From Candidatus Thorarchaeota archaeon (lineage in GTDB: Archaea; Asgardarchaeota; Thorarchaeia; Thorarchaeales; Thorarchaeaceae): DNA of 64,000 bases. A program made the translations under genes and the position numbers. The notes under the pieces were generated by a model. That model had not been told where the DNA came from. It was given only the letters and a program-made list of their open reading frames with translations, and did no database searches. The first letter of the stretch is position 1. Each line of letters opens with the position of its first letter. The stretch covers positions 71,672-135,671 of the forward strand of contig JBHLQM010000002.1 of the NCBI GenBank assembly GCA_048884785.1, in the 5' to 3' direction. This document shows positions 43,011 to 64,000 of the stretch, piece by piece.

Positions 43011-43631
43011 TCAGTGTCCAATTTCCTTCCAATCAAGCATTTTCATATCTTCTAGGCTATGAAGTGCTTTCTGGACATCTTTGACAGTTTTACCCAACTG
43101 ATCTGCGATATCACGCACAGTTAGTTTTCCAGTGCACATTTGGCCAACATCATATACTTCCTGAGATATTTGTCCCAAACGGACTAGCATTGGTGATACT
43201 TTGCCCTTTAGTAATGGGACTAGGATTTTCATTTCTGAGGCTTTTCCATCCTTCGTGATTTCATCTAATTTGGGAACGAATGATTCGAAAGGTTCAAGAT
43301 TTCCATCCCAGTTTGGCAGGATAGAAGAATACTGCCTCACAAATTGGTTATTCACATCCGCCAGAACCGCCATAGCGGCATTACCATCATCCGTCTTGTC
43401 GACAGTTGCGGCAACTATGACATTATTCCTTAAGGAGAGACATATATCAAACGCACCGAAGTCGATGACATGCACTCGATTTCCTGAACTCAATTCCTGT
43501 CCAAACGAAATGAGAGCAGTGAGAAATCCGCTTATGAGATTGGGGTCCATTTCGGCCTCTCCGTATTTGCGGTCAAGCACGCACAGGCCACTGTCAGCAA
43601 TGAGCACGTATATTGCTTGAATCAACCTCAT
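43011..43631 (-). CDS. Longin domain + C-terminal winged helix (NPRL2-like architecture)
   Basis: IYVL...SGLCV...DPNLISGFLTAL..F..E is the Asgard longin pattern; C-terminal CTGKLTVRDIA...VQKALHSLEDMKML wHTH. Confidence 0.8.
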   Translation of the reverse strand: MRLIQAIYVLIADSGLCVLDRKYGEAEMDPNLISGFLTALISFGQELSSGNRVHVIDFGAFDICLSLRNNVIVAATVDKTDDGNAAMAVLADVNNQFVRQYSSILPNWDGNLEPFESFVPKLDEITKDGKASEMKILVPLLKGKVSPMLVRLGQISQEVYDVGQMCTGKLTVRDIADQLGKTVKDVQKALHSLEDMKMLDWKEIGH

Positions 43632-49617: not shown

Positions 49618-49724
49618 TCGAAGAAAAAAGGAAGATGTAACACAAATCGTTAAATAGTAGGTACGCGAATTTAATGGAAGGTTGCCAGAGGAGCCTATCA
49701 TCTTTACTTGTATGGGGTGCAGTT

Positions 49725-50276
49725 GTGAAACTTGTTGAATTGGCTCGGAAGTCGCTTTCTATCCTAAAGGAGATTGGAGAGGAAGGAATTAGGAGCGATG
49801 AGCTTGCGGATGTTTTGAGGGTTCCAAAGAGAAGGGTCTACGATGTTGTTGCGGTGCTGAAGGCTCTTGATCATGTTGACACCAAAAGACGCTTCAATGG
49901 GACCACAGTCACTTGGGTTGACCGATCCAAAGAGTTCGTTCCTAAGAAAGAGTATGATATTTTGAAGTCTCGACTTGAAGACGAGAGTTCAGCAAGAAGG
50001 GAGATTCAAACACAACTGGCCGAGGTAAAAGAACAGCTAAGAATAACACGTTCAAAACTGAGGTTGGATGTTCAGGCAGTCGAATGCGCAAAGAAGACCG
50101 AGTTCAATACTACCTATCTCAGAATACGCGCTTTATCAGGACGTGGATTCAAACGAGTCGCTGATTCAGGGCATGAAGCCATTGTTGAAACTTATGAACC
50201 TGGACTCATTGTTGATCCATCTGAAGTGGAAATTGACGAGAATGAGTCAATTCTAAAGAATATCAAGAGCGTTTGA
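49725..50276 (+). CDS. E2F/DP-like winged-helix transcription factor with coiled coil and beta-rich C-terminus
   Basis: LADVLRVPKRRVYDVVAVLKAL...VTWV carries the E2F/DP RRxYD signature, followed by a heptad region. GGGGTG RBS before GTG 49725; ORF opens at 49674. Confidence 0.8.
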   Translation: MKLVELARKSLSILKEIGEEGIRSDELADVLRVPKRRVYDVVAVLKALDHVDTKRRFNGTTVTWVDRSKEFVPKKEYDILKSRLEDESSARREIQTQLAEVKEQLRITRSKLRLDVQAVECAKKTEFNTTYLRIRALSGRGFKRVADSGHEAIVETYEPGLIVDPSEVEIDENESILKNIKSV

Positions 50277-50730: not shown

Positions 50731-51897
50731 ATGTGTCCACAGGCATCTGATTCAAATGGGGTGGAACGCATTCACGTCGCCAAACTAGATGTGGCATTTG
50801 TAGTAGATACAACTGGTTCAATGAAAGATGATATCAGAGCTGTCAAGGATTCTCTATTTGATATTGTTGACAAAGTAGTTTCTAAAACTGAAGGATTATC
50901 CATTAGGTTCGGGATAGTGTCCTATAGGGATCATCCTCCTCAGGATAGAACCTATGTCACTAGAGTTTTTGATTTCACATCAAAGATAAAAGATGTTCAT
51001 ACAGAGATATCACGTCTTCGTCCTTCGGAAGGCGGCGACACTCCTGAAGCTGTGGCTGATGGTCTTTTTGATGCAAGAACGAAACTGACATGGGAAAAGG
51101 ATGCGTACAAAGTCCTACTTCTTGTTGGCGATGCTCCTCCTCATGGCAGATTGTATAACTCACTCAGTGACGATTACTTCCCTGATGGCTGTCCCAGAGG
51201 CCATGATCCTTGTAGAGAGGTACAAGATCTAGTCAAGGATTTTGGTACAACGATTTTTGTGTTTGTTCTCGGCTGCAATCCACTTGTAGAGCAATCATTT
51301 AGAAAAATCGCGTCTGCAACAGAGAATGGAGAATATTACTCTTTATCCAGGGCACATGAACTTCCAGAGGCAATTCTGCGAATCCTTGAGGGAGTTAGCG
51401 ATTTAATTGAAGAAGACCGGAAGGTTTTGGCATTTTATGAGGCTAACGATGGAATTTTCGACATAGGAAATGCCGCTCAGGAAATAGGAATGGAAGTCAG
51501 ACAGCTGAAAATCTCTCTCTCACGCCTTCTTGAGCTGGAACGAATCCCTCGATGGCCAAAGGGTCGGCCTCTGTCTCCTGATAAGATGGGCATCAAAGTT
51601 GTGCTAGGCGATGTACCTGATGCCCTTATTGCAGGAAGAGCCTTTAATTATCGTTTACGAGTAACCAATCCAAGTTCAACAATTCTAGGAATCAGGGTAA
51701 TTGTAACTCTTGTAACTGATGAAGGCGTATCCGAGATTACCAATGAACAGCATGAAATTGGTCCCCGAAATGATAGGCAAATTGAGCTAAGCTTGATACC
51801 TATGACAGAATCTAGAGAGAAAGCCAGTTTGCGGGTTGAAGTGTTTTATGGATCAAAAGCCGTGGCTCAGAAAATATACACCACACGAGTGTACTAA
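50731..51897 (+). CDS. vWA domain protein with intact MIDAS + wHTH + Ig-like C-terminal domain
   Basis: FVVDTTGSM, YRDHPP, GGDTPEA, GDAPPH; then AAQEIGMEVRQLKISLSRL and a beta-rich tail. Confidence 0.85.
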   Translation: MCPQASDSNGVERIHVAKLDVAFVVDTTGSMKDDIRAVKDSLFDIVDKVVSKTEGLSIRFGIVSYRDHPPQDRTYVTRVFDFTSKIKDVHTEISRLRPSEGGDTPEAVADGLFDARTKLTWEKDAYKVLLLVGDAPPHGRLYNSLSDDYFPDGCPRGHDPCREVQDLVKDFGTTIFVFVLGCNPLVEQSFRKIASATENGEYYSLSRAHELPEAILRILEGVSDLIEEDRKVLAFYEANDGIFDIGNAAQEIGMEVRQLKISLSRLLELERIPRWPKGRPLSPDKMGIKVVLGDVPDALIAGRAFNYRLRVTNPSSTILGIRVIVTLVTDEGVSEITNEQHEIGPRNDRQIELSLIPMTESREKASLRVEVFYGSKAVAQKIYTTRVY

Positions 51898-51911: not shown

Positions 51912-53075
51912 GTGCAGCTTAAGGCGATCAGAGGACGAAACCAACGCGGATTATCATTCCTAGCTACCGGAAGCGGATTGGTAGACAAGACTGTCAGAAT
52001 AACACTTGGTTCAAATAGCATCCTCACTCGAATTCGTGATTCTCCAAAGGTCCCCTCAGATTTGATAGTCATTGACAGCCGACTCTACGACTCTCTTGGA
52101 GCAAAAGCAGGCGCAGAAGTGGAGGTTGCTGTTGTGAATTCAAAGATACCCTCCTGTACTGAATTGACATTGGTCGTTTCAGCAAAGCAAGATATCGATA
52201 CCAAAGATGTTGTAAAAGACCTATCTAACAGAATTGAGATTTTAGAGGAACACATCGACGGTCTGATTCTGAGATGTCGCCAAATCATTAGAATCCCGCC
52301 ACTTGGAATCTCAGTAAAAGTACGTGATATTCATCCGGTTTCAAGCGATCTTGGAGTAGCAATCCTAGATTGGAAAAGGAACACGAAGATATACCTGCAG
52401 GCAGATTTAGGGACAAAATGCTTCAATCTCATCTTAGTTACTGATGTCGGAGCCGCATCAAAAAAGGCCGACATTTCGCTATCGCATTCAGATGTAGATA
52501 TTGCCGGAGACTCGGTGATGAAACGCCATGAAGCAGCGGACCAATTAACAAGGTCTCTAATTGATGCTATCTCATTATGCGAGGGTGACCCTCTCCTCTC
52601 TTCTATAATCTATTCCGAGGAGACTGATGTTTTCCGAATCAATGATTCATCCGATGAAGTTGATAATGAGGTCATTGATATACATTCGCCCAGCATTTCA
52701 GAAATTCATTCAAAGTGGATTTCCAATTCAAGTGATGCACATGCAGAAGACGCCTCGAATCCGTCACTGGGTATTGAGCGAGCATTTTCAATCGCCACGA
52801 AGCTAAGGTCAAAAAACCATCTTCCAACCCTCATAGTGCTTCTTTCAAGTGGAGCATACTCGCATGGAAAGAACCCCGTGGCTACTGCAAAGAAATATGC
52901 ATCAGTTGATCAGGGGATATCGCTGGCTTGTGTAGGGTTAGGAACCAGGTGTGAGGAATCTCTACTGGTTGGAATTGCTGATGCCGCAGGAGGAACAGTT
53001 GATATTATCAAGGAGATTGCAGATATTCCGATTGTTCGAGACCGTCTTATTCAAACAGCACAAAAGGAGGCATAG
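51912..53075 (+). CDS. CDC48-N-like two-lobe domain + degenerate vWA (paralog of 58875..60164)
   Basis: IVIDSRLYDSLGAKAGAEVEV barrel motif; TKDVV...LEEHIDG aligns with TEDLV...LEDLIGG; FNLILVTDVGA, LIVLLSSG, CVGLG. Confidence 0.75.
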   Translation: MQLKAIRGRNQRGLSFLATGSGLVDKTVRITLGSNSILTRIRDSPKVPSDLIVIDSRLYDSLGAKAGAEVEVAVVNSKIPSCTELTLVVSAKQDIDTKDVVKDLSNRIEILEEHIDGLILRCRQIIRIPPLGISVKVRDIHPVSSDLGVAILDWKRNTKIYLQADLGTKCFNLILVTDVGAASKKADISLSHSDVDIAGDSVMKRHEAADQLTRSLIDAISLCEGDPLLSSIIYSEETDVFRINDSSDEVDNEVIDIHSPSISEIHSKWISNSSDAHAEDASNPSLGIERAFSIATKLRSKNHLPTLIVLLSSGAYSHGKNPVATAKKYASVDQGISLACVGLGTRCEESLLVGIADAAGGTVDIIKEIADIPIVRDRLIQTAQKEA

Positions 53076-53111: not shown

Positions 53112-54251
53112 ATGTATGCAGGCGGAGAGATTATGGGGCACATCTCAGTAAAATTACCAGGAAGCAAAATAGCGGCAGGATGGATTGAACGGGGAATCAT
53201 TGCACAAGGGATTGGTGGCCATTTAGGTTCAAAAGAAAATCAAGAAAAATTCGCAATACCACTGAGCATAACAATGAGGTTTGTTGTTGATAGAGGGATT
53301 GATTCTGAAGGCGATTCTGGTATTCTAATCCTAGGGGAAAAAGGTTCAGAAAGAGAGAAATTTGTGGTTATATTCCAAAACAATTTCACAGAACGAAATG
53401 TAACCAAGATTATCTCAGCGTTTTGGCTAAAATCCGATTCACCAAAAGAGATACTCCAGCTGTTTACACGTTCAGTTCTTAATCATCAATTTGTGGAGCC
53501 TAACGTAGAGCCACCAATTGATTATGTTGAGTATATACGAGAAAGCGCTTCTGTCTTGAATTGTACAGAAGGATTTGCATTGGAGATTCCACAGAATTGG
53601 AAAAAAAAGAGAAATTGGATACCAGAAACACTTCAAGGTGATTCAACAAGCTCAGTTCTATTCAAACATAAACATCCAAAGGATTCCATATCTCTAGCTT
53701 TATTGCTGAGCAACTGGATTGCAGAAATGAATGAAACCCTAAGAGTTACGAATTTAGTTGGAGCATGTTTCTTCCTTCGGTCAGATACTATAGAGAGTTT
53801 CCTCTGGGATGGACCTAGAAGTATTCTAACGTCATCTATTTTCGGGAGTTCAAATTTTGAAGCCATCTCAGTGAATACTCTTGCCTTTTTGTGGGAATCT
53901 ATGGACACACATATTTCCCAGATAGATTCCAAAGCTATCAGGAGCGAGGATGAACCTCTGCCAAAAGAAAGAGTAGTAGTCCCCCCCGAATATGAACGCC
54001 TGGCAAGCGTGGCAAGAGGGCTGCTTGGCAAGATAGATATTGAAGATATGTTTCGAAGAATTGAAAGAACCGAAGCTATACTAGGCGAGCTCGAAAGAGC
54101 TAGCAGTACCAAACCAGACGAAGAGAAACCAAAATTACCGACTCATATTGAATCAAGACTTCGTGATGCATTAGACCAGCTTGAAAACCTGGCGACTCGA
54201 CTCATAGAAATGGAACAACGAATTCAAGCTATATGTAATCAATTGGAGTAA
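53112..54251 (+). CDS. Hypothetical protein with C-terminal coiled coil
   Basis: 379-aa ORF (alternative ATG 53133 after GGAG); heptads in the last ~80 aa. Confidence 0.7.
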   Translation: MYAGGEIMGHISVKLPGSKIAAGWIERGIIAQGIGGHLGSKENQEKFAIPLSITMRFVVDRGIDSEGDSGILILGEKGSEREKFVVIFQNNFTERNVTKIISAFWLKSDSPKEILQLFTRSVLNHQFVEPNVEPPIDYVEYIRESASVLNCTEGFALEIPQNWKKKRNWIPETLQGDSTSSVLFKHKHPKDSISLALLLSNWIAEMNETLRVTNLVGACFFLRSDTIESFLWDGPRSILTSSIFGSSNFEAISVNTLAFLWESMDTHISQIDSKAIRSEDEPLPKERVVVPPEYERLASVARGLLGKIDIEDMFRRIERTEAILGELERASSTKPDEEKPKLPTHIESRLRDALDQLENLATRLIEMEQRIQAICNQLE

Positions 54252-54258
54252 TTGAATA

Positions 54259-54528
54259 ATGACAGATGCTTGGATCTCGCAGATGAATATGCTCCTGCAT
54301 TCTCTAGAAGAGATAGATGAAGCCAGGATAAGAATTCGGGAAGTTGAATCTAGGATATTGGATTTCACAAAAGGCAAAGAGGCATCATTGGAGAAGGAAG
54401 GGATCAAAGAATCATCAGATATTTCCTTGATTGATGAGGTCCTTCGCTTTATTGAAGATGTAGAACTATCTGTAAACCGCTTGGATATTCGCCTATCCGC
54501 AATTGAACGCTTAGTAAAAAAAGAGTGA
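54259..54528 (+). CDS. Small coiled-coil protein
   Basis: 89 aa, GGAG RBS, two amphipathic helices. Confidence 0.65.
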   Translation: MTDAWISQMNMLLHSLEEIDEARIRIREVESRILDFTKGKEASLEKEGIKESSDISLIDEVLRFIEDVELSVNRLDIRLSAIERLVKKE

Positions 54529-54541
54529 TAATTTGCCTATC

Positions 54542-57166
54542 CTAACGTGGCGAAATCTGCTTTATCACTGATTGCAAATATCCTAAATAATCAAACATGG
54601 AGAGCTCATTAAGGGGCAGAATTCTTACTTTCAATCCCTTCAAAATACTTTGAGCTCTCGTTGTTTCAAATCCATTGCCAATACCGATTAATTCTAGATG
54701 ATAGTTTACACTGCCTGAGATAGCTTTTGTATACGAGTCAATCTCAGCTTCTTGACCCTCTAGATTGCTAGCGCATATTATCACTATTGTCGGCCGGTCA
54801 CCACCAAAATCCTCAAGCATCTCAGCAATGCTTCTAAAGATTCCCGTGGGATTAGTTGGGCCTTCAGGTAGCTCTCCTGAATCAAGAATTGAATAGATCA
54901 GGGATGTGATCACTTCATTGTTATTCATGTCGTCATACAATTCAATATAGTCCTGTGAAGTTGCCCCTTTCTGGATAGAGAATTTCATAGGTGAACTACC
55001 AGCAAATATAATTCCCATCTTTCCATCTGATCTATTGCGCTTCATTCGCATAAGTGTCAGCAATCCAATAATAGTCGAAACATCCCCTCTCGAAACTGTC
55101 GTACCCAATCCTTTCAGATACTGTTGCAAATCAATATTTCCTTCAGCAAATGGCTCTAGGTATTTTTTAAGAGATGTAGGAGTTGCCAGTTGCACATCCC
55201 GTGTCTTCATCTCGCTTCCTGTTGAGAGAATAAGTAGAATATTCAGGTCGTTGAGAAAGACCCTAGGCTGGATTTCAACAAGGGTATCGCCAATTCTTGC
55301 TAATTGATTTCGCTCTATAGCTGGTTCAGTATATGCCACATCAAGTTCCACACCTTTTGAAGTCACAAACCTACTACCAATTCCTATCAAGTGGCTGGAT
55401 ATTCTTTTTATTATCTCATCTCTCTCAATGTGAAGATGTGTAGATAGTTCGGATTCTGTAAATCCTGGGACGTCTTCATAAGTCAAGAGGACACTCGTCA
55501 AATCTGCAACTTTGTCAACATATCTTATTACATCCAATTTTGAAGACTGCGTGAGACCATAGCATTTAGAATCATTGGCACTGAGCCCAAGATTTCTTGA
55601 GGGACAGGTTTTACTGGGATTTACACTAGCTCCCCACCAATGACCAGAATTTGCATCAAGGATTGTTACTGTATTACCAGATTTCACTCCAATTGCCTTC
55701 ATGTCTCCTGAACACATCGATATTTTACCTGGATCGATTTCGTCATTTTCAATGCCAAATTGTAGAGATGACATCACTTCCTTTGTAGCGCTCACTCCCA
55801 AAGCATTCAGGAATGTGTTATTAAAGGCGGAAATATGACTCGGAGCATCAAGTACTGGTCCCTTATCTGCCGCCACAATGCTTGTCCTGAAGGCTTTTGC
55901 GTTTCTTGGTGTAACTGATTCTGAAAATACAGGGTTCCAAGCTACAAGCCTAAGAGATCCGCCTTGTTCTCGATGAAGGGCGACACTGTTTGCCAATCCT
56001 GTTTTGATGTCTTCCACTGTGAGTATTCCAGAGTCAAAATCAACAAGGCCATTATTAGAATCTAGCATAAAATCGAATGATATTATGTCCTGTATTTTTC
56101 TTACAGAGAGAACACGTAGGAGCCGGGATATTTCTAGTAGGGCAGTCTTCCCTAGTTTCCCCTCAGCGAGAGCTGTGTTTTCATTAAACCTGTATCCAAG
56201 AAAAGATGGTCTCACAGGCAACAGCGAGAGAATATTACCTGCCAGGATTCTTTGTAAATCCTCTAGTGTGGCTCCCATATTCTTACTGAGGATAAAGCTA
56301 AGTATCTCTGGAACTGTATCACCTAGTTGGGTTTCCGGATATGCACTTGAAAATATCAGCTTCTCCGACCAATGCATATCAGTATCAGTCTTCTTCAGAA
56401 CATTGATTATAGTTGATAGTGATCCTATTGTCGCACCAGATGTTAGCAGGCGTGTCCTAGGGAGTTCCAGAAGTGCAAGTATATGTTCTTCTAGATGCTT
56501 ATGAGAGGGCACCAAGAAGACCACTTCTGGTTGTGGAAGAGCCGCTTCCTTTACAAAAACGAGCCATTCAAGTATCTCATCTATCGCACGCATTTCATTC
56601 AGATGTAAATAGATTGGCTCTCTGTTCTTAATGCATTGAATCAAAGCATCTTTGTCTTTTCCTTCAAAAACATTCGACAAACTAGACGCATCAAGTAGAC
56701 ATCCCCATCCCGCAGGGATTTTCAGACCATGTCCCAAATTTCTCAAGGCGTATATGCGGGAAGAAAACTCTGATTTGGCTCCCCATCGAAAGCATGAATC
56801 TATGTTATTTCTTTGCTGAAACCTTGGAAGTGCCTTATTAGATACCTCAGTCAGTGGATGCGCTACAAACATGTCTGCAATCCATGAACCATCGACTGAA
56901 CTTGGGTTGCTATCGTAGATATCTGCAAGAAGAGGAGGTCGCGATAGGTATGAATAGGCTCTTCTCGGGAGATACCGAAATGAAGTCGCATATTGTGACG
57001 CCAAGTCATATACTTGAGAGCCAACAAGGTCATAGAATCTCAGGAGCCTTTCAGGGTCGAACGAGCGAATACTGGCTCCTAATTGTATGATTCCCAACTT
57101 AACGCTGGCGTCCACTAATAGGAGCTGCTTGAGCTCATTCGTTTCTCTGTCCTCTACGACTAACAT
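54542..57166 (-). CDS. Fusion of inactive amidohydrolase-like barrel + CDC48-N-like domain + degenerate vWA
   Basis: N-half aligns with 57297..58805 (MLVV...VDA, HWSE.L.F, QRIL.GN.LS) but lacks the metal ligands. C-half aligns with 58875..60164 (WGA, MKT.DV, TVSR, PT, IG.G). Confidence 0.8.
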   Translation of the reverse strand: MLVVEDRETNELKQLLLVDASVKLGIIQLGASIRSFDPERLLRFYDLVGSQVYDLASQYATSFRYLPRRAYSYLSRPPLLADIYDSNPSSVDGSWIADMFVAHPLTEVSNKALPRFQQRNNIDSCFRWGAKSEFSSRIYALRNLGHGLKIPAGWGCLLDASSLSNVFEGKDKDALIQCIKNREPIYLHLNEMRAIDEILEWLVFVKEAALPQPEVVFLVPSHKHLEEHILALLELPRTRLLTSGATIGSLSTIINVLKKTDTDMHWSEKLIFSSAYPETQLGDTVPEILSFILSKNMGATLEDLQRILAGNILSLLPVRPSFLGYRFNENTALAEGKLGKTALLEISRLLRVLSVRKIQDIISFDFMLDSNNGLVDFDSGILTVEDIKTGLANSVALHREQGGSLRLVAWNPVFSESVTPRNAKAFRTSIVAADKGPVLDAPSHISAFNNTFLNALGVSATKEVMSSLQFGIENDEIDPGKISMCSGDMKAIGVKSGNTVTILDANSGHWWGASVNPSKTCPSRNLGLSANDSKCYGLTQSSKLDVIRYVDKVADLTSVLLTYEDVPGFTESELSTHLHIERDEIIKRISSHLIGIGSRFVTSKGVELDVAYTEPAIERNQLARIGDTLVEIQPRVFLNDLNILLILSTGSEMKTRDVQLATPTSLKKYLEPFAEGNIDLQQYLKGLGTTVSRGDVSTIIGLLTLMRMKRNRSDGKMGIIFAGSSPMKFSIQKGATSQDYIELYDDMNNNEVITSLIYSILDSGELPEGPTNPTGIFRSIAEMLEDFGGDRPTIVIICASNLEGQEAEIDSYTKAISGSVNYHLELIGIGNGFETTRAQSILKGLKVRILPLNELSMFDYLGYLQSVIKQISPR

Positions 57167-57296
57167 CCAATGCTCTTCCTGAAGGTTTCATGCAATTCGT
57201 GTTTGTGAAGCAATTTATGCATAATGAAGCTTTTCAAAGAATGGGAATAGTTTATCACTGGTGGCTCTTTTCACCTTAGAGAGGCATGCTATAATA

Positions 57297-58805
57297 ATGC
57301 TTGTTGTCCGAGCTCTTGATGATGCACCTGAGCAAGGTGTGCGAAAGGATGACATTTATCGACTGTATATAGTCGATGCTCACCATCATATGGGTAAAGA
57401 AAAAACACATCGAAATACACCCGGTGGCGCATATGACTTCTACCAGCTCTTGTGGTTTGAAATGAAGCGGCTTTCTCAGCATGAACTTGAGAATGATAGT
57501 CTGCTGTTTGAGCCTGTAGATGTAGTTGCTTCTCCGTTCCCCTCTAGTGTCTTCTCAAGTAGAGATAGCTGGTCCCGAATGAATCACGGGTGGCTTGTCG
57601 ATAGAACGATTGCATTTCCATATTCAGATGACTATTCAAAAACAGGGAAAGATGGTGAAGCATCATTTAAGGTTTCAAATGATAAAATCGCAGGATGGAC
57701 AACACGTGCTCCTCACTCGACAAGGCTTATTGGTTTCGGACGTGTTGATCCACAAGATGCCAAAAAAGGTAATCCTGACATTGCTGTAAGAGAATTAGAC
57801 CGAGCTGTTCTTACTCTTGGATTAAGAGGATTGAAACTACACCCGCTTGCTCAGCTGTTCATTGATGAATTGGAGGGTGACATAACCAAGAGGATCCTAA
57901 AGCGAGCTGGTGAACTTGGAATCCCTGCAATTTTTGATACGAGAAATATAAAGACAGTGATTCGAATAAAGCATCTTGTTGATGCCATGAGTGAAGATCC
58001 AGTGTATTCACAGGCCGCAAAGAAACTAAACATCATATTGGCCCATTGTGGAATGAGTCCTGGTGACTCCAAATTATATGACATTTTGAGGGATCCACGT
58101 TTCTCTGCAGATACTTCTACACTGCATGATCAAGACATTCCGCTGCTTTGTGATATGGCCATAAATCGAATAAATACTCCCGCAAAACATTGGTCTGAGA
58201 GCTTGCTATTTGGGACAGATTATAGTTTCCTCTCAACTCAAGCAGCAGAAGTCATTCTTTACACCCTCTCAAGGGATTTTCCAGGCAGATTGAGTGACGC
58301 TCAACGGATTCTAGGCGGAAATGCACTTTCAATAATTCAACAGCCATTCAAGACAACCAGAAGGAGTAGAAGATATCCTCGCCAATTATCCTGCCCCAAT
58401 GAAGAAGGAAAGTCTAGATACATAATTGAAAAGGCGATTATCTCACTTCTTCATAATGGCGAATGGGACTTATCATCTCTTGATAGCATGCTACCACCTC
58501 TGCATACATGGCCTGAGTTACTGCCCGAAGAACTGGGAGGGTTTAACGGAGTATACACTGATTCATTACTGGCAACTCTTCAGTCAAAAGAGGAGGATTA
58601 TGAATTGCACCTCTGGATTCGAACGAATCCGGGTGATATTCTAACAGTTGCGGCCGTTGGAACAAAAGGCGAGGATTCACTCAAAACCTTGGAGTTTACA
58701 ACACAGAGAATTGGTGAGAGCTTACTTGAAGAACTCTCGAAAAACACACGTCACGAGAGCAATGCGCATTCTCTAGTGGACAGCATTCCAAGAATATTGA
58801 GGTAG
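57297..58805 (+). CDS. Amidohydrolase_2-type metal-dependent TIM-barrel enzyme with extra C-terminal domain
   Basis: VDAHHH, GLRGLKLHP, ILAHCG, LLFGTDY, ILGGNA. ATG 57297 chosen because the paralog also begins MLVV; ORF opens at 57261. Confidence 0.88.
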   Translation: MLVVRALDDAPEQGVRKDDIYRLYIVDAHHHMGKEKTHRNTPGGAYDFYQLLWFEMKRLSQHELENDSLLFEPVDVVASPFPSSVFSSRDSWSRMNHGWLVDRTIAFPYSDDYSKTGKDGEASFKVSNDKIAGWTTRAPHSTRLIGFGRVDPQDAKKGNPDIAVRELDRAVLTLGLRGLKLHPLAQLFIDELEGDITKRILKRAGELGIPAIFDTRNIKTVIRIKHLVDAMSEDPVYSQAAKKLNIILAHCGMSPGDSKLYDILRDPRFSADTSTLHDQDIPLLCDMAINRINTPAKHWSESLLFGTDYSFLSTQAAEVILYTLSRDFPGRLSDAQRILGGNALSIIQQPFKTTRRSRRYPRQLSCPNEEGKSRYIIEKAIISLLHNGEWDLSSLDSMLPPLHTWPELLPEELGGFNGVYTDSLLATLQSKEEDYELHLWIRTNPGDILTVAAVGTKGEDSLKTLEFTTQRIGESLLEELSKNTRHESNAHSLVDSIPRILR

Positions 58806-58874
58806 ATGCCTGATGCACTATCCTTTATATCGTTACATGCTTTGATTAAATTAGGAGTCTAGGAGGCTTTTGCT

Positions 58875-60164
58875 ATCGTCGATAATCTGAACCTTGAAAT
58901 TGTAGATGGCGGGGATCTACGCGGGTACGCCACACTAAATCCCAAAACCGCAGATGCTCTTAAAGCTGAGATTGGATCCATTGTAATTTTTGAAGACCCT
59001 GAGAGTAGTTTTTGGGGAGCTGCTGAGATACGGAAGAGCAATGATGTTCCTGAAGGCCAAATTTTTGTGGACACATTGGTACTTGAAGCATCACTCCTTA
59101 TGGAGGGCGATAGCGTTGAGGTTTCATTATATGAGCGAGACATGATAGCACTAGACTATGTTGAATTTGGATTGAAACCCCTTTCTGAGGATGCGAACAC
59201 CGAGGATTTAGTCACGAGGGCTGCCGAGAAAGTTGAATCGTTGGAGGATCTCATTGGAGGCCGTTTGGTCTATCCGGGCATGTCTTTCAATTGGCCAGAC
59301 TTAGATGTTAAGGTTGAGATTATGAACACTCGTCCTGGCTTAACAGGCAAGAGTTTCGCAAAACTTGCTTTCGAAGCCCTGAAAGAGAGAACCGGATATC
59401 AATTTAAAACAATAGGCATTGCCACACCATTCAATGCCATCCTCTGTATTGATACAAGCGGGTCAATGAAGACAAATGATGTTCCCGTACAGGACATAGC
59501 CCATGCAAGGGAAGGTCTCAAGGATTTGGCAGGAGATAATCCTGAGGTTCAAGCATTTCTGGATAGATTCGAAGAAGGAAGAACAGTAAGTAGAGCTGAG
59601 GCGGCGGCTATGGCAGTTTTGCTGTATCTGGCTGAGAAAGTTGGCCGAGGCTATGGTGAAAAAGTAGGCGTCATTACATTTGAAAAAGAAGTCGCTGAAA
59701 TGACATTTCTCAATGCCGATACAGGTGAAGTACAACCATTTGTGGAGTGTACGGGACGTGAGAAAGCACTGGGTTTGCAGATCATAAGCACTCATGTAGT
59801 AGACAAGGTTGAGGAAGGCGGGACTTTGACAAACATGGGTAATGCATTGGCAAAGGCTGCAGATGTCCTTAGCGCCATGGGTGATCCAACCAAGCCTACT
59901 ATGTTCATTCTTCTAACTGACGGTATGACAACAGCTGGTCCACCACCCCTAAAAGTCATGAAAGACCGTTTTCCTGATAGAAGCAGCTTTGTAATGTATT
60001 GTATTGGATTGGGAGAACGAAGCGAATTGGACGAGGAATTGATGCTTGCTCTCTCACAATACGGCAATGGTACCTATCGACATGTCGACAATATGAGAGA
60101 TTTGCTGGAATGGTATGGCCGCTTAGCTAGTGAGTTTGCCATTGTAATTCGTGGAGCAGAGTAG
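58875..60164 (+). CDS. CDC48/NSF-N-like two-lobe domain + vWA with intact MIDAS (DEPDC5/Iml1 NTD-SABA-like); probable ATC start
   Basis: Frame is open from 58863 and encodes RGYATLNPKTADALKAEIGSIV...WGAAEI...GQIFVD upstream of the tracked GTG 59067. MIDAS DTSGS / T / LTDG; AGGAGG at 58861-58866. Confidence 0.8.
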   Translation: MVDNLNLEIVDGGDLRGYATLNPKTADALKAEIGSIVIFEDPESSFWGAAEIRKSNDVPEGQIFVDTLVLEASLLMEGDSVEVSLYERDMIALDYVEFGLKPLSEDANTEDLVTRAAEKVESLEDLIGGRLVYPGMSFNWPDLDVKVEIMNTRPGLTGKSFAKLAFEALKERTGYQFKTIGIATPFNAILCIDTSGSMKTNDVPVQDIAHAREGLKDLAGDNPEVQAFLDRFEEGRTVSRAEAAAMAVLLYLAEKVGRGYGEKVGVITFEKEVAEMTFLNADTGEVQPFVECTGREKALGLQIISTHVVDKVEEGGTLTNMGNALAKAADVLSAMGDPTKPTMFILLTDGMTTAGPPPLKVMKDRFPDRSSFVMYCIGLGERSELDEELMLALSQYGNGTYRHVDNMRDLLEWYGRLASEFAIVIRGAE

Positions 60165-60165
60165 T

Positions 60166-61359
60166 TCATCTAGGTTCCAATGCATCTGCAAGATCTTTCA
60201 ATGAGTCGATATCCATCTCTTGAATCTGGTCTTCAGGGATACCCGCCAACATCTCCTCTGGGATATTCGAGAGTATCTTCGCCTTTTCTTCCCCATACTT
60301 CTCAATCAAGGCTGAGATTCTCACATCGTCTTCGGATTCTTTCGTCTTCTTCGGCTTCTCTTTCTTAGGGGCTTCTTTTTCGGGAACGCTCACTCCCTCA
60401 TCAACAGGAGCCATAGGAGCAATCTCTGAACTTGATGCCACGACAGCTTCAAGTTCTTCTATTGAGAGACCTTCCAGAACATCTTCGGGGAGCGATGCCT
60501 TTACTTCCTCAGGGATTTGCTCAAGTAGATCCTCTTTGGATGGTCCGGTCCTCTTCTTAACTTTCTTTACCTTGGTGACCTTTACCGTCTTTTTCTTGAG
60601 CTCCTTATCCTTTTTGCTAGGAGCCGCAGCAAGTAGTGAATTCACCAGTTCTCTTGCTGTATTTGGCGTTAGTCGTCTCAGGTCCTCCTCAGGAAGTGTT
60701 TCTCTGATTTCATCGGGGAGTTCGGAAAGGATTTCTTCTACCTCAGGGGAAATCCCAGTTGGTTTAGAAAGGATTGGTGATTCCATTTCAGCGCCTTCCA
60801 AGATAATTGGTCCTGACTCCATTGCCTCTATTATAGAAGTGTCAATCTCAACCTCGTAATTCTGCTTTCTCCATTTCATGAAGCGATCAATTTGCTTTGG
60901 CCTTACTTTGATATCGAGAAGGAAACTGCGAATTTGCTCTTCATCCATCTCTGGAAAATCAGCAAGAATTTTGTCAACACTGTCTTTTGATAATCGTGCC
61001 CAAATGGGTCCTGCTATTAGTTTTGAAAGTCCATTGGCACAGTGGGATCGCACCCAAGTACTTGGATCCTTCAATCCCTCAACCAAAGTCGGGATTGTAG
61101 ACGGTTGTTGGTACCAAGCCAGAACTTCAGCTGCAGCTATTCTGACTTCTTCCTCATCATCCTTTAATGCTTGTACAACATCCTTGACAATTGTTGGATC
61201 TGCAAGCTCGAGCGTTGCAATCAAAGCTCTTTGTCTAACGATGTCCGAAGTGTCTGATATTGCCTTCACAAGTGCTTGTCTAACGGCCGAATTACTACGC
61301 GCGCGAACCCCTACTTCCTCGGTTAGGAAATCTAGCAGCATTCTCCTAGTTTCAGACAT
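60166..61359 (-). CDS. HEAT/PBS-lyase repeat protein with three acidic L/IPEE helical repeats
   Basis: DIVRQRAL, EEVRIAAAEVL, TWVRSHCANGL repeats; C-terminal LPDEI/IPEEV/IPEEM units. ATG 61359 follows GGAGAGG. Confidence 0.82.
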   Translation of the reverse strand: MSETRRMLLDFLTEEVGVRARSNSAVRQALVKAISDTSDIVRQRALIATLELADPTIVKDVVQALKDDEEEVRIAAAEVLAWYQQPSTIPTLVEGLKDPSTWVRSHCANGLSKLIAGPIWARLSKDSVDKILADFPEMDEEQIRSFLLDIKVRPKQIDRFMKWRKQNYEVEIDTSIIEAMESGPIILEGAEMESPILSKPTGISPEVEEILSELPDEIRETLPEEDLRRLTPNTARELVNSLLAAAPSKKDKELKKKTVKVTKVKKVKKRTGPSKEDLLEQIPEEVKASLPEDVLEGLSIEELEAVVASSSEIAPMAPVDEGVSVPEKEAPKKEKPKKTKESEDDVRISALIEKYGEEKAKILSNIPEEMLAGIPEDQIQEMDIDSLKDLADALEPR

Positions 61360-61606
61360 AGATTGCCTCTCCACACGTATAGACATATTATGATGAGGGT
61401 TTAATGCTCGTTTTGATTCTATCACTTAAATGAGTTGGCTCTATGTATTGTTTTCACTTCTTGAAAAACAATGTGACAGCAACACATAGTCACCTCTCAT
61501 GACAAATGCAATCACCAAAATAATCTATTCCTAGATAATAGCTTCTGGTGTCTACCCATCGTACAAGATTTAACGGGGATTGATTGTTCACGACTGGGTT
61601 GACAAT

Positions 61607-62463: not shown

Positions 62464-63165
62464 CTATTGATCGGATGCGATTTCGCTTCCTATTCCTTTT
62501 GTGACAACCATCGTCATGCCACTCAAGCCAAGAACATTCACGGTTTCGCCCTCGTAGATTGGTGGACCTGTTGTTTTTGCCCACCATATCTCAGCTCCAG
62601 ATTTGACCTTTCCCTTTGGATTGATGTCAGTTATCGCAACAATATTCCTCATCTTGGCATATTCGTACTGTGGCCATTTATCATAGTCCCTCAGAAATAC
62701 AATGTACAAGCCCATCAGGCTCAGGATTGTGCCAACCATGATGTATACAGGCATGTGTCCTGTGGGGTCAATGAACCATGCCACGAATATCGCAACTCCA
62801 TATATTGGGAACAGCTTGAGCGATAGCTTTGCGTCAATGATACCCCCCTCTATTCCAGTTGCTCCTCCCGTGAAAACAGAAAATAGAATGTAAAGGAAAG
62901 CACCTGCTATGAATATCATAATCGGGTCGAACACAAACGCTGCTCCAACATAGATCAGTTGGAAGACAAAAAGGACGATGACTATCGGAATAGTCACTTG
63001 CGCCATTGCCTTTCCTGTTGCAGGTTCTACTGTCAATACCATGAGTGTGAGTATAATCCCGACTAGGATGAGCCCATAAAAGGGATTCAATACTACAATA
63101 CCAATAACCATGCTCAACGCTGACATGAGTATCATGACGACGAGGATCTTTATCCAGGCGTCCAT
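62464..63165 (-). CDS. NfeD-like membrane protein (C-terminal OB-fold)
   Basis: TM region, then GKVKSGAEIWWA...IYEGETVNVLGLSGMTMVV; downstream of stomatin. Confidence 0.85.
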   Translation of the reverse strand: MDAWIKILVVMILMSALSMVIGIVVLNPFYGLILVGIILTLMVLTVEPATGKAMAQVTIPIVIVLFVFQLIYVGAAFVFDPIMIFIAGAFLYILFSVFTGGATGIEGGIIDAKLSLKLFPIYGVAIFVAWFIDPTGHMPVYIMVGTILSLMGLYIVFLRDYDKWPQYEYAKMRNIVAITDINPKGKVKSGAEIWWAKTTGPPIYEGETVNVLGLSGMTMVVTKGIGSEIASDQ

Positions 63166-63201
63166 TCTTTCAACTCCTTAGATTCTATTGAACGGTGAGA
63201 T

Positions 63202-64000
63202 TTACTTCTCCTCATCCGTTCCCTTGTTTCTGGGAATCTTCATACCACCAGTTCCTGCCGTTATGGCTGCTGCCATTCCAGCTGACATACCAACCTCAGG
63301 AATGTTCGTAGGTACCATGATGATTAGATTGGCGTTCTTGCTAATCTCCTGCATGATGTTCCAGGTACGTAGTGTCATACCTGAGGGAGAACGCTCATAG
63401 GTCTGTGCCGCTTTTAGCATGGCCTCTGAAGCCTCAAGCTCAGCTTGTGCAAGAGTGATTCTCGCACGCCTCTCTCTTTCCGCTTGTGCTTCTCTGCTCA
63501 TTGCATCTTGCAGCTGGGTTGGGATAACCACGTCTCGTATCTCAACGGCTGTTACTTTCACACCCCAGTGTTCAGTCTTCTCATCAATCAGCTCCTGCAA
63601 ATGAGCAGCAATTCTATCTCTGTCGGACAGCAATTCATCCAGAGTCACTTTACCAGTGGTTTCTCTGAGTGTTGTCTGAGCTGCTAGCTCCACTGCAACA
63701 GTGTATCTCTCAACGCTGAGGATTGCCTTTTCAACATCAATCACTCTGAAATACATCACAGCATCAACAACCACAGGTACATTATCCTTTGTGAGAGACC
63801 TCTCAGTTTTGAAAGCGTATGTGAGTAATCTTAGAGATACTCTCATGGCAACCTTATCAAGGAAAGGAGTCACCCATATGATTCCTGGTCCGCGAATGTG
63901 CTTGAATTTACCAAGCCTAAGAATGGCCACTCGCTCCCATTCCTTCAAAATCTTGATACCACTAGCTATGAACATCAAGGCGAAGAATGCGAGGACTATC
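63202..64000 (-). CDS. Stomatin/SPFH (slipin) protein, N-terminus beyond window edge
   Basis: EWERVAILRLG, LTKDNV, AQTTLR, WGVKVTAVEIRD, AERERRA; frame stays open (IVLAFFAL) to the window end. Confidence 0.93.
   Translation of the reverse strand, partial: IVLAFFALMFIASGIKILKEWERVAILRLGKFKHIRGPGIIWVTPFLDKVAMRVSLRLLTYAFKTERSLTKDNVPVVVDAVMYFRVIDVEKAILSVERYTVAVELAAQTTLRETTGKVTLDELLSDRDRIAAHLQELIDEKTEHWGVKVTAVEIRDVVIPTQLQDAMSREAQAERERRARITLAQAELEASEAMLKAAQTYERSPSGMTLRTWNIMQEISKNANLIIMVPTNIPEVGMSAGMAAAITAGTGGMKIPRNKGTDEEK

Follow-up and report, generated by a model that had tools for sequence, protein, structure and literature searches.

A divergent gene arrangement was analysed in a stretch of 64,000 nucleotides (the window) of Candidatus Thorarchaeota archaeon (assembly GCA_048884785.1, contig JBHLQM010000002.1, positions 71,672 to 135,671). 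A minus-strand gene for an 874-residue protein, here called the fusion, faces two plus-strand genes, encoding an active-type amidohydrolase and a protein that joins a Cdc48-N-like domain to a von Willebrand factor A domain (the Cdc48N-vWA protein, or vWA protein). By sequence, the fusion is an ancient fused paralogue of the amidohydrolase/Cdc48N-vWA pair opposite, with the metal sites of both partners lost. Its description as an ancient, maintained double pseudoenzyme and as a Rosetta-stone link between the two active proteins, proposed in an initial annotation of this DNA, is supported by the comparisons presented below, and it is, in our judgement, moderately probable that the fusion is functional but non-catalytic. 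The positions of the three open reading frames (ORFs) and the 130-bp length of the divergent spacer are as that annotation gave them (Table 1).

Homology, site loss and maintenance of the fusion

The fusion had been claimed to be collinear with both plus-strand genes, and profile–profile alignment (hhalign), which the initial annotation proposed as a check, is significant to each partner. Fusion residues 9-433 align with amidohydrolase 17-469 (probability 97%, E 4.8e-11) and residues 467-868 with vWA protein 8-425 (probability 97%, E 4.2e-11), in order and end to end. The coverage extends to essentially the whole of both neighbours, including the extension of about 140 residues after the barrel of the active enzyme. 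The alignments used comprised seven fused orthologues (A1), 26 amidohydrolases (A2), and 20 vWA proteins (A3). The motif pairs quoted in the annotation are all found in the translations and are paired with one another by hhalign. BLASTP gives a single significant, correctly ordered match to each partner (fusion 265-316 to amidohydrolase 310-359, E 3e-8; fusion 641-720 to vWA protein 122-203, E 2e-5), and a search of 1.8 billion representatives with a plain hidden Markov model of the fusion family also recovers stand-alone proteins of either family, with E from 1e-11 to 1e-6. The fusion itself has no Pfam match, no NCBIfam match, and no Amidohydro_2 match at E <= 1; its N-terminal domain does not reach the Pfam gathering cut-off of PF04909, and this homology is visible only by profile–profile comparison. 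The structure model of the fusion (predicted local distance difference test, pLDDT, 88.4; predicted template-modelling score, pTM, 0.76) confirms both folds, the (beta/alpha)8 amidohydrolase barrel and the vWA alpha/beta fold.

In the fusion of the window, HxH is replaced by S-V-K and GTD by SSA, and the histidines of KLH and AH have no counterpart. In the MIDAS (metal-ion-dependent adhesion site), DxSxS has become SxGxE, and LTDG, which holds the MIDAS aspartate, has become CAS. The losses of HxH, KLH, AH, GTD, and DxSxS had been read from the single sequence, and an alignment of 28 full-length fused sequences agrees. The strand-8 aspartate is replaced in all 28, the two later histidine ligands have no counterpart, and HxH is kept in one sequence only, the Jordarchaeial P0285. 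The MIDAS pattern DxSxS...T...D is lost in all Thorarchaeota fused copies, and D-x-S is kept among fused proteins only in the Jordarchaeial P0285 and P0288. The stand-alone families retain all ligand and MIDAS residues: H29, H31, H182, H250, and D308 of the amidohydrolase are invariant in 26 sequences, and D197, S199, S201, T323, and D353 of the vWA protein are invariant too. Since P0285 keeps both HxH and D-x-S, the decay of the sites came after descent from an active form, and the fused lineage descends from active forms and shed its sites progressively. Two nearly invariant motifs, PRRAYSYLS and S-x-YPETQ, were gained by the fused lineage.

The claim that the fusion is maintained and not decaying also stands. 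Among 400 scanned genomes of the phylum, the gene was full-length and stop-free in 79 of 85 genomes of family f1, in the single genome of f2, in all five of f15, and in all six of f16, these being four coded Asgard families; by source name, the fused proteins come from both Thorarchaeota and Jordarchaeia/Freyarchaeota. Internal stops (TGA and TAG) were found in one of the 91 genomes with a match (G333:C3:785286-787917), which may be a real pseudogene or an assembly error. The ratio of nonsynonymous to synonymous substitution rates (dN/dS, omega) between orthologues, another check proposed in the annotation, is 0.11 for two genomes whose fused proteins are 83% identical, which indicates purifying selection; neutral decay was not seen. 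In the same comparison, the amidohydrolase has a ratio of 0.076 and the vWA protein one of 0.011, neighbours range over 0.03-0.25, and within the fusion the four segments are even (0.10-0.13). A strain 95-99% identical, from another study, differs by substitutions only, with no indels, and of the 16 changes listed, 12 affect the third position of a codon. The fusion is thus, as far as these rates and frames tell, kept by purifying selection in four Asgard families.

The active pair and its predicted complex

The amidohydrolase belongs to Amidohydro_2 (PF04909; 41.9 bits against a cut-off of 26.4), with the full ligand set. More than 260 relatives were found in a word-indexed search, and the 120 listed are 52-72% identical and carry the names Thorarchaeota or Promethearchaeota. 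Its ATG start gives 502 residues and a GTG at 57261 would give 514; orthologues start at ATG 57297. The partner belongs to VWA_2 (40.6 bits against a cut-off of 27), with MIDAS complete, and is very highly conserved, with about 80% identity across the class. Its N-terminus scores 15.6 bits with Pfam CDC48_N, below the 35.1 cut-off; the family profile matches VAT-N and designed double-psi beta-barrel (DPBB) chains (E 4e-5 to 1e-3), and the Jordarchaeal orthologue has a precomputed CDC48_N match. There is no ATG, GTG, or TTG upstream of 59067 in the vWA gene, yet the preceding 68 codons encode conserved N-domain sequence, and the true start is therefore uncertain. Orthologues begin with M or L exactly at the TAG of the window at 58860-58862, a codon reproduced in the contig of an independent sample, and GGAGG at 58862-58866 precedes ATC at 58875. 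The amidohydrolase and vWA frames coincide, with two TAGs between them. In-frame readthrough from one to the other was considered and rejected, because about one third of relatives share the frame and their stops vary (TGA, TAA, TAG), as expected by chance.

Gene adjacency and complex prediction both support the proposal of the initial annotation that amidohydrolase and vWA protein act together. The amidohydrolase adjoins a CDC48_N+VWA gene in Jordarchaeales too. The predicted complex of the pair passes its controls: the interface score ipSAE is 0.69 (median of three runs) versus 0.00 for the best of three controls, with at least 63% of contacts in common between runs and a partner pLDDT of at least 77. 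Among solved complexes, 58 of 80 attain the mark applied to ipSAE, and among mismatched pairs 2 of 110; this calibration is rough only, own alignments having been used. Contacts are predicted between the strand-1 face of the barrel and the Cdc48-N-like domain. As the amidohydrolase family profile finds nothing among PDB sequences at E <= 0.01, a complex memorised by the predictor is an unlikely source of this result. The prediction supports binding between the two proteins and is not proof of it. The Rosetta-stone argument accordingly has its elements in place: one chain is homologous, in order, to two proteins, these are adjacent in two Asgard classes, and their complex is predicted. The idea that the segments shared by the fused and split forms are the interface contact residues was tried and rejected, such residues not being enriched (Mann-Whitney p 0.28-0.97).

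A third full-length Cdc48N-vWA paralogue at the locus (51912-53075) is new here and is missing from the initial annotation. It aligns with the stand-alone family (hhalign E 2.9e-10) and with the fused C-half (1.2e-9), is syntenic in L001, L005, and L009, belongs to the conserved upstream operon together with the plain vWA gene and two ORFs of no assigned family (Table 1), and has the highest omega of the locus (0.25).

Gene order, origin and the wider module

Table 1. Features of the locus, in coordinates of the window.
Feature	Position	Strand	Length	Remarks
Fused double-pseudoenzyme gene (P0001)	54542..57166	-	874 aa	ORF intact over ~2.6 kb; dead amidohydrolase barrel, middle domain, Cdc48-N-like domain, MIDAS-less vWA domain
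Fusion residues 1-320	56207..57166	-		Amidohydrolase-fold (beta/alpha)8 barrel without metal ligands; motifs PRRAYSYLS, S-x-YPETQ
Fusion residues 321-465	55772..56206	-		Alpha/beta middle domain, counterpart of the C-terminal extension of the active amidohydrolase (about 360-470); hhalign reaches fusion 433 / amidohydrolase 469; Atlas match covers fusion 1-491; omega 0.10
Fusion residues 466-630	55277..55771	-		Cdc48/VAT-N-like domain; WWGA replaces FWGAAE; hhalign with N domain of vWA protein; Foldseek p97-N matches, template-modelling (TM) score by target ~0.6
Fusion residues 631-874	54545..55276	-		vWA fold, MIDAS lost (SxGxE for DxSxS, CAS for TDG)
Divergent intergenic spacer	57167..57296	.	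130 bp	Two AT-rich boxes
Active-type amidohydrolase (P0010)	57297..58805	+	502 aa	PF04909 plus C-terminal extension; HxH, KLH, AH, and GTD all intact
Cdc48N-vWA protein	58863..60164	+	about 430 aa	Complete MIDAS DTSGS...T...TDG; start codon uncertain
Third full-length Cdc48N-vWA paralogue	51912..53075	+	387 aa	Degenerate MIDAS
Plain vWA protein	50731..51897	+	388 aa	DxTGS start of MIDAS; Pfam VWA_4/VWA; first gene of conserved upstream operon
Upstream operon ORF without assigned family	53112-54251		379 aa	
Upstream operon ORF without assigned family	54259-54528			
HEAT-repeat protein	60166..61425	-		Converges on vWA gene; Pfam HEAT_2
E2F/DP-type winged-helix protein	49674-50276	+		Pfam E 1.9e-8
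Band_7/NfeD pair	62464-63978			
Longin/winged-helix candidate	43011-43631	-	206 aa	Sub-threshold Longin (E 0.029) and winged-helix Pfam matches

The order of genes is conserved in five other Thorarchaeota loci. It runs from an E2F-like winged helix-turn-helix gene through cyclophilin-like, vWA, and Cdc48N-vWA-like genes and genes for proteins of about 380 and about 85 residues to the fusion (opposite strand), and continues with the amidohydrolase, Cdc48N-vWA, HEAT (opposite strand), Rce1-like, NfeD, and Band_7 genes. The cyclophilin-like gene was not seen in the 64-kb window. The E2F/DP-type gene opens the neighbourhood in all Thorarchaeota loci examined, and the HEAT gene holds the same position in L001, L003, L004, L005, and L009. 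The 379-residue ORF of the upstream operon shows no relation to either family. The divergent layout of fusion versus pair occurs in about 40 listed genomes, and the mirror-image arrangement is a Thorarchaeial feature. Jordarchaeial fused genes lie away from the pair, each diverging from a Band_7 (SPFH) gene (L006 6787-10670; L007 6886-10544). In Thorarchaeota, the Band_7/NfeD pair lies three genes from the module, and a recurrent link to membrane-scaffold proteins may exist.

The initial annotation explained the locus by an ancient inverted duplication followed by fusion. The ancient paralogy to both neighbours holds; the inverted duplication in situ is not established, since the fused gene is unlinked from the pair in Jordarchaeia. 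In an unrooted tree of the Cdc48N-vWA module (from which row p3_L003, a wrong gene, is to be disregarded), all stand-alone proteins (Thor, Jord, Heimdall, Kor) lie on one side of a branch with SH-aLRT support of 96, and the C-halves of the fusions branch off outside that clade as a whole. This position would fit either a very old duplication or accelerated evolution. The spacer, aligned over six loci, contains two separately conserved AT-rich boxes, which point to candidate back-to-back archaeal promoters; shared control is not implied.

A GCS2-like carboxylate-amine ligase, syntenic with these genes and missing from the initial annotation, probably belongs to the wider module. Two Thorarchaeota loci have a GCS2-like protein of about 1,150 residues at ~7 kb from the module, and in Jordarchaeales one lies ~7 kb from the fused gene. 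In Heimdallarchaeaceae, a 493-residue GCS2 protein directly precedes the Cdc48N-vWA gene, in a cluster with an Amidohydro_2-like gene. The window ends at the contig end. Contig C6, which probably continues the contig of the window, starts with a series of membrane protein (267 residues), PfkB, DUF92, and GCS2-like genes, and the same series follows Band_7 in L004; because of this match, the ligase-like gene probably lies ~7 kb downstream here. This assembly holds copies of about 1,150 residues at C6 3453-6908 (L015) and C84 4476-7910 (L016), of which the second may be a paralogue or part of the 5.4% contamination of the assembly. The Heimdallarchaeaceae cluster (L011 218-13299) reads GCS2, Cdc48N-vWA, 241 residues, Amidohydro_2-like of 580 residues, vWA, 244 residues, vWA, that is, the same gene set rearranged and without the fused dead copy.

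Known systems and interpretation

The top Foldseek matches in the PDB are DEPDC5/Iml1 chains, for the first model 9xzy (E 4.8e-12) and 8adl_W (9e-10) and for the second 8ae6_W (E 3.8e-8). The alignments span ~420-550 columns with a root-mean-square deviation > 16 A, and p97 N-D1 is close behind (9e-10 and 8.8e-8), so that this best structural match, new here, holds by a small margin. Individual p97-N domains are also matched, with TM by target about 0.6. The stand-alone vWA model has a pLDDT of only 63.8, and its matches therefore weigh less. DEPDC5/Iml1 (Sea1) of GATOR1/SEACIT and the proteins of the window have in common that a vWA/Sec23-trunk-like alpha/beta domain comes immediately after a Cdc48/NSF-N-like one and that an ATPase is absent; DEPDC5 has an NSF-like N-domain and then the Sec23-like SABA domain (PMC8534245). 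However, the proteins of the window end after the vWA domain, with no SHEN, DEP, or C-terminal domains, their conserved neighbours are a hydrolase, vWA paralogues, and a HEAT protein, and their conserved partners are the hydrolase and a ligase-like protein instead of NPRL2/3. A whole-genome search with Pfam IML1 (PF12257) gives nothing at E <= 10, and the family profile finds no DEPDC5 chain among PDB sequences. Judged from the models, the likeness is one of architecture and not of membership. NPRL2-like proteins were described in most Thor metagenome-assembled genomes, with no Depdc5 counterpart (Liu et al., bioRxiv 10.1101/2020.10.19.343400). The longin-winged-helix gene of Table 1 lies 11 kb from the module, outside the syntenic block seen, and has only sub-threshold Pfam matches.

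Compared with the metal-dependent TIM-barrel hydrolases and decarboxylases of PF04909, such as the uncharacterised CAC3332 (PDB 3cjp), the fusion is without every ligand, and fusion and active enzyme both carry the extra domain of ~140 residues after the barrel. Nearest to the vWA domain by sequence are ArnB and ArnE of Sulfolobus (PDB 8s05, 5a8j). ArnB combines a split beta-sandwich with a phosphorylated helical bundle and has the FHA/zinc-finger protein ArnA as partner (PMC12852372). It lacks a Cdc48-N domain, and neither a hydrolase partner nor a dead fused paralogue goes with it, in contrast to the system of the window. No description of the module was found in the literature on Asgard amidohydrolase, vWA, DEPDC5, or GATOR1. 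A precedent for inert members of this fold is offered by the CRMP/dihydropyrimidinase-like proteins, which keep the amidohydrolase fold without metal ligands, are maintained by selection, and serve binding and not catalysis. In contrast, the fusion unites two dead modules, barrel and vWA, in one chain beside their active counterparts, and we know of no sequence relationship between it and the CRMPs.

In the model proposed here, the Cdc48-N-like domain would join the active amidohydrolase to the Cdc48N-vWA protein as a heterodimer. The fusion would be a covalent, inert version of this heterodimer and would belong to their module as a subunit that does not hydrolyse. Its part could be structural, with paralogous interfaces pairing it to the active proteins, or it could bind the substrate of the hydrolase uncleaved, as reader or trap. 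The data suggest that the three proteins work as one machine. Since the wider module probably has a GCS2-like ligase, its likely chemistry would be the addition and removal of an amide-linked group on a target. Several points weigh against this proposal. The residues of the predicted interface are neither better conserved in the fused family nor more shared with the split family, so that what argues for mimicry of the heterodimer is the collinearity and the model pTM of 0.76. The Pfam GCS2 scores of the large ligase-like proteins are weak (17-24 bits against a cut-off of 21), and the link between module and ligase in this assembly is drawn across a contig break. Moreover, the nearly invariant polar motifs PRRAYSYLS and YPETQ could mark a new site instead of inertness.

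The last point leads to a reading that we hold to be unlikely, in which the fusion is neofunctionalised, with a new catalytic or ligand site built from PRRAYSYLS and W-S-x-K...S-x-YPETQ-x-GD, independent of the pair. Seven orthologues, 41-56% identical, show the motifs without variation, and most of the 28 fused sequences retain YPET where D-Y-S-F-L stands in the active family. The omega of the fusion, as low as that of ordinary enzymes, and its separation from the pair in Jordarchaeia also fit this reading; however, the motifs form no recognisable known catalytic constellation, the protein lacks Pfam and NCBIfam matches, and throughout Thorarchaeia the gene stays divergently linked to the pair. 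A different polarity seems to us distinctly improbable, in which a fused gene came first and was split by fission into the active pair, while the fused descendants that survive lost their sites afterwards. It would account for the tree position of the fused C-halves, and the HxH and partial MIDAS of Jordarchaeial fused proteins imply that an active fused ancestor once existed. Against it, lineages without the fused gene (Heimdallarchaeaceae, Korarchaeota, many coded families) have stand-alone Cdc48N-vWA genes, a single domain is the general rule for PF04909 enzymes, and all genomes examined have the pair as separate genes; an open frame in G312 that seemed to run for 966 residues, a candidate for a natural active fusion, was resolved as two ORFs. 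That the fusion is a dying duplicate or annotation artefact, its likeness to the neighbours being incidental, has a negligible chance and is already refuted by these results: the stops in G333 stand alone against E-values of the order of 1e-11 to both partners, a frame intact over 2.6 kb in four families, an omega of 0.11, and strain variation biased to third codon positions.

The reading of the fusion as a functional, non-catalytic paralogue of the pair can be extended to a broader scheme, which we put forward as a doubtful speculation. Here, the locus would be part of an Asgard writer/eraser/reader system for an amide-linked tag, with the GCS2-like ligase as writer, the PF04909 hydrolase docked by its Cdc48N-vWA adaptor as eraser, and the dead fused copy as reader or regulator. 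The ATPase-less Cdc48N-vWA adaptors of such a system would be the archaeal stock, ancestral to the NTD-SABA front half of DEPDC5/Iml1 (GATOR1/SEACIT).

The locus presents an unusually clean natural case of an enzyme and an adaptor beside a fused copy of both, with both metal sites gone, and the fusion has been retained by selection since before the divergence of Thorarchaeia and Jordarchaeia. A three-protein assembly in Asgard archaea is a direct, testable prediction, in which the Cdc48N-vWA protein, with its omega of 0.011 and about 80% identity across the class, is a likely core component. Should the likeness to DEPDC5/Iml1 stem from common descent, eukaryotic nutrient signalling would gain one of the parts still missing from its archaeal roots.

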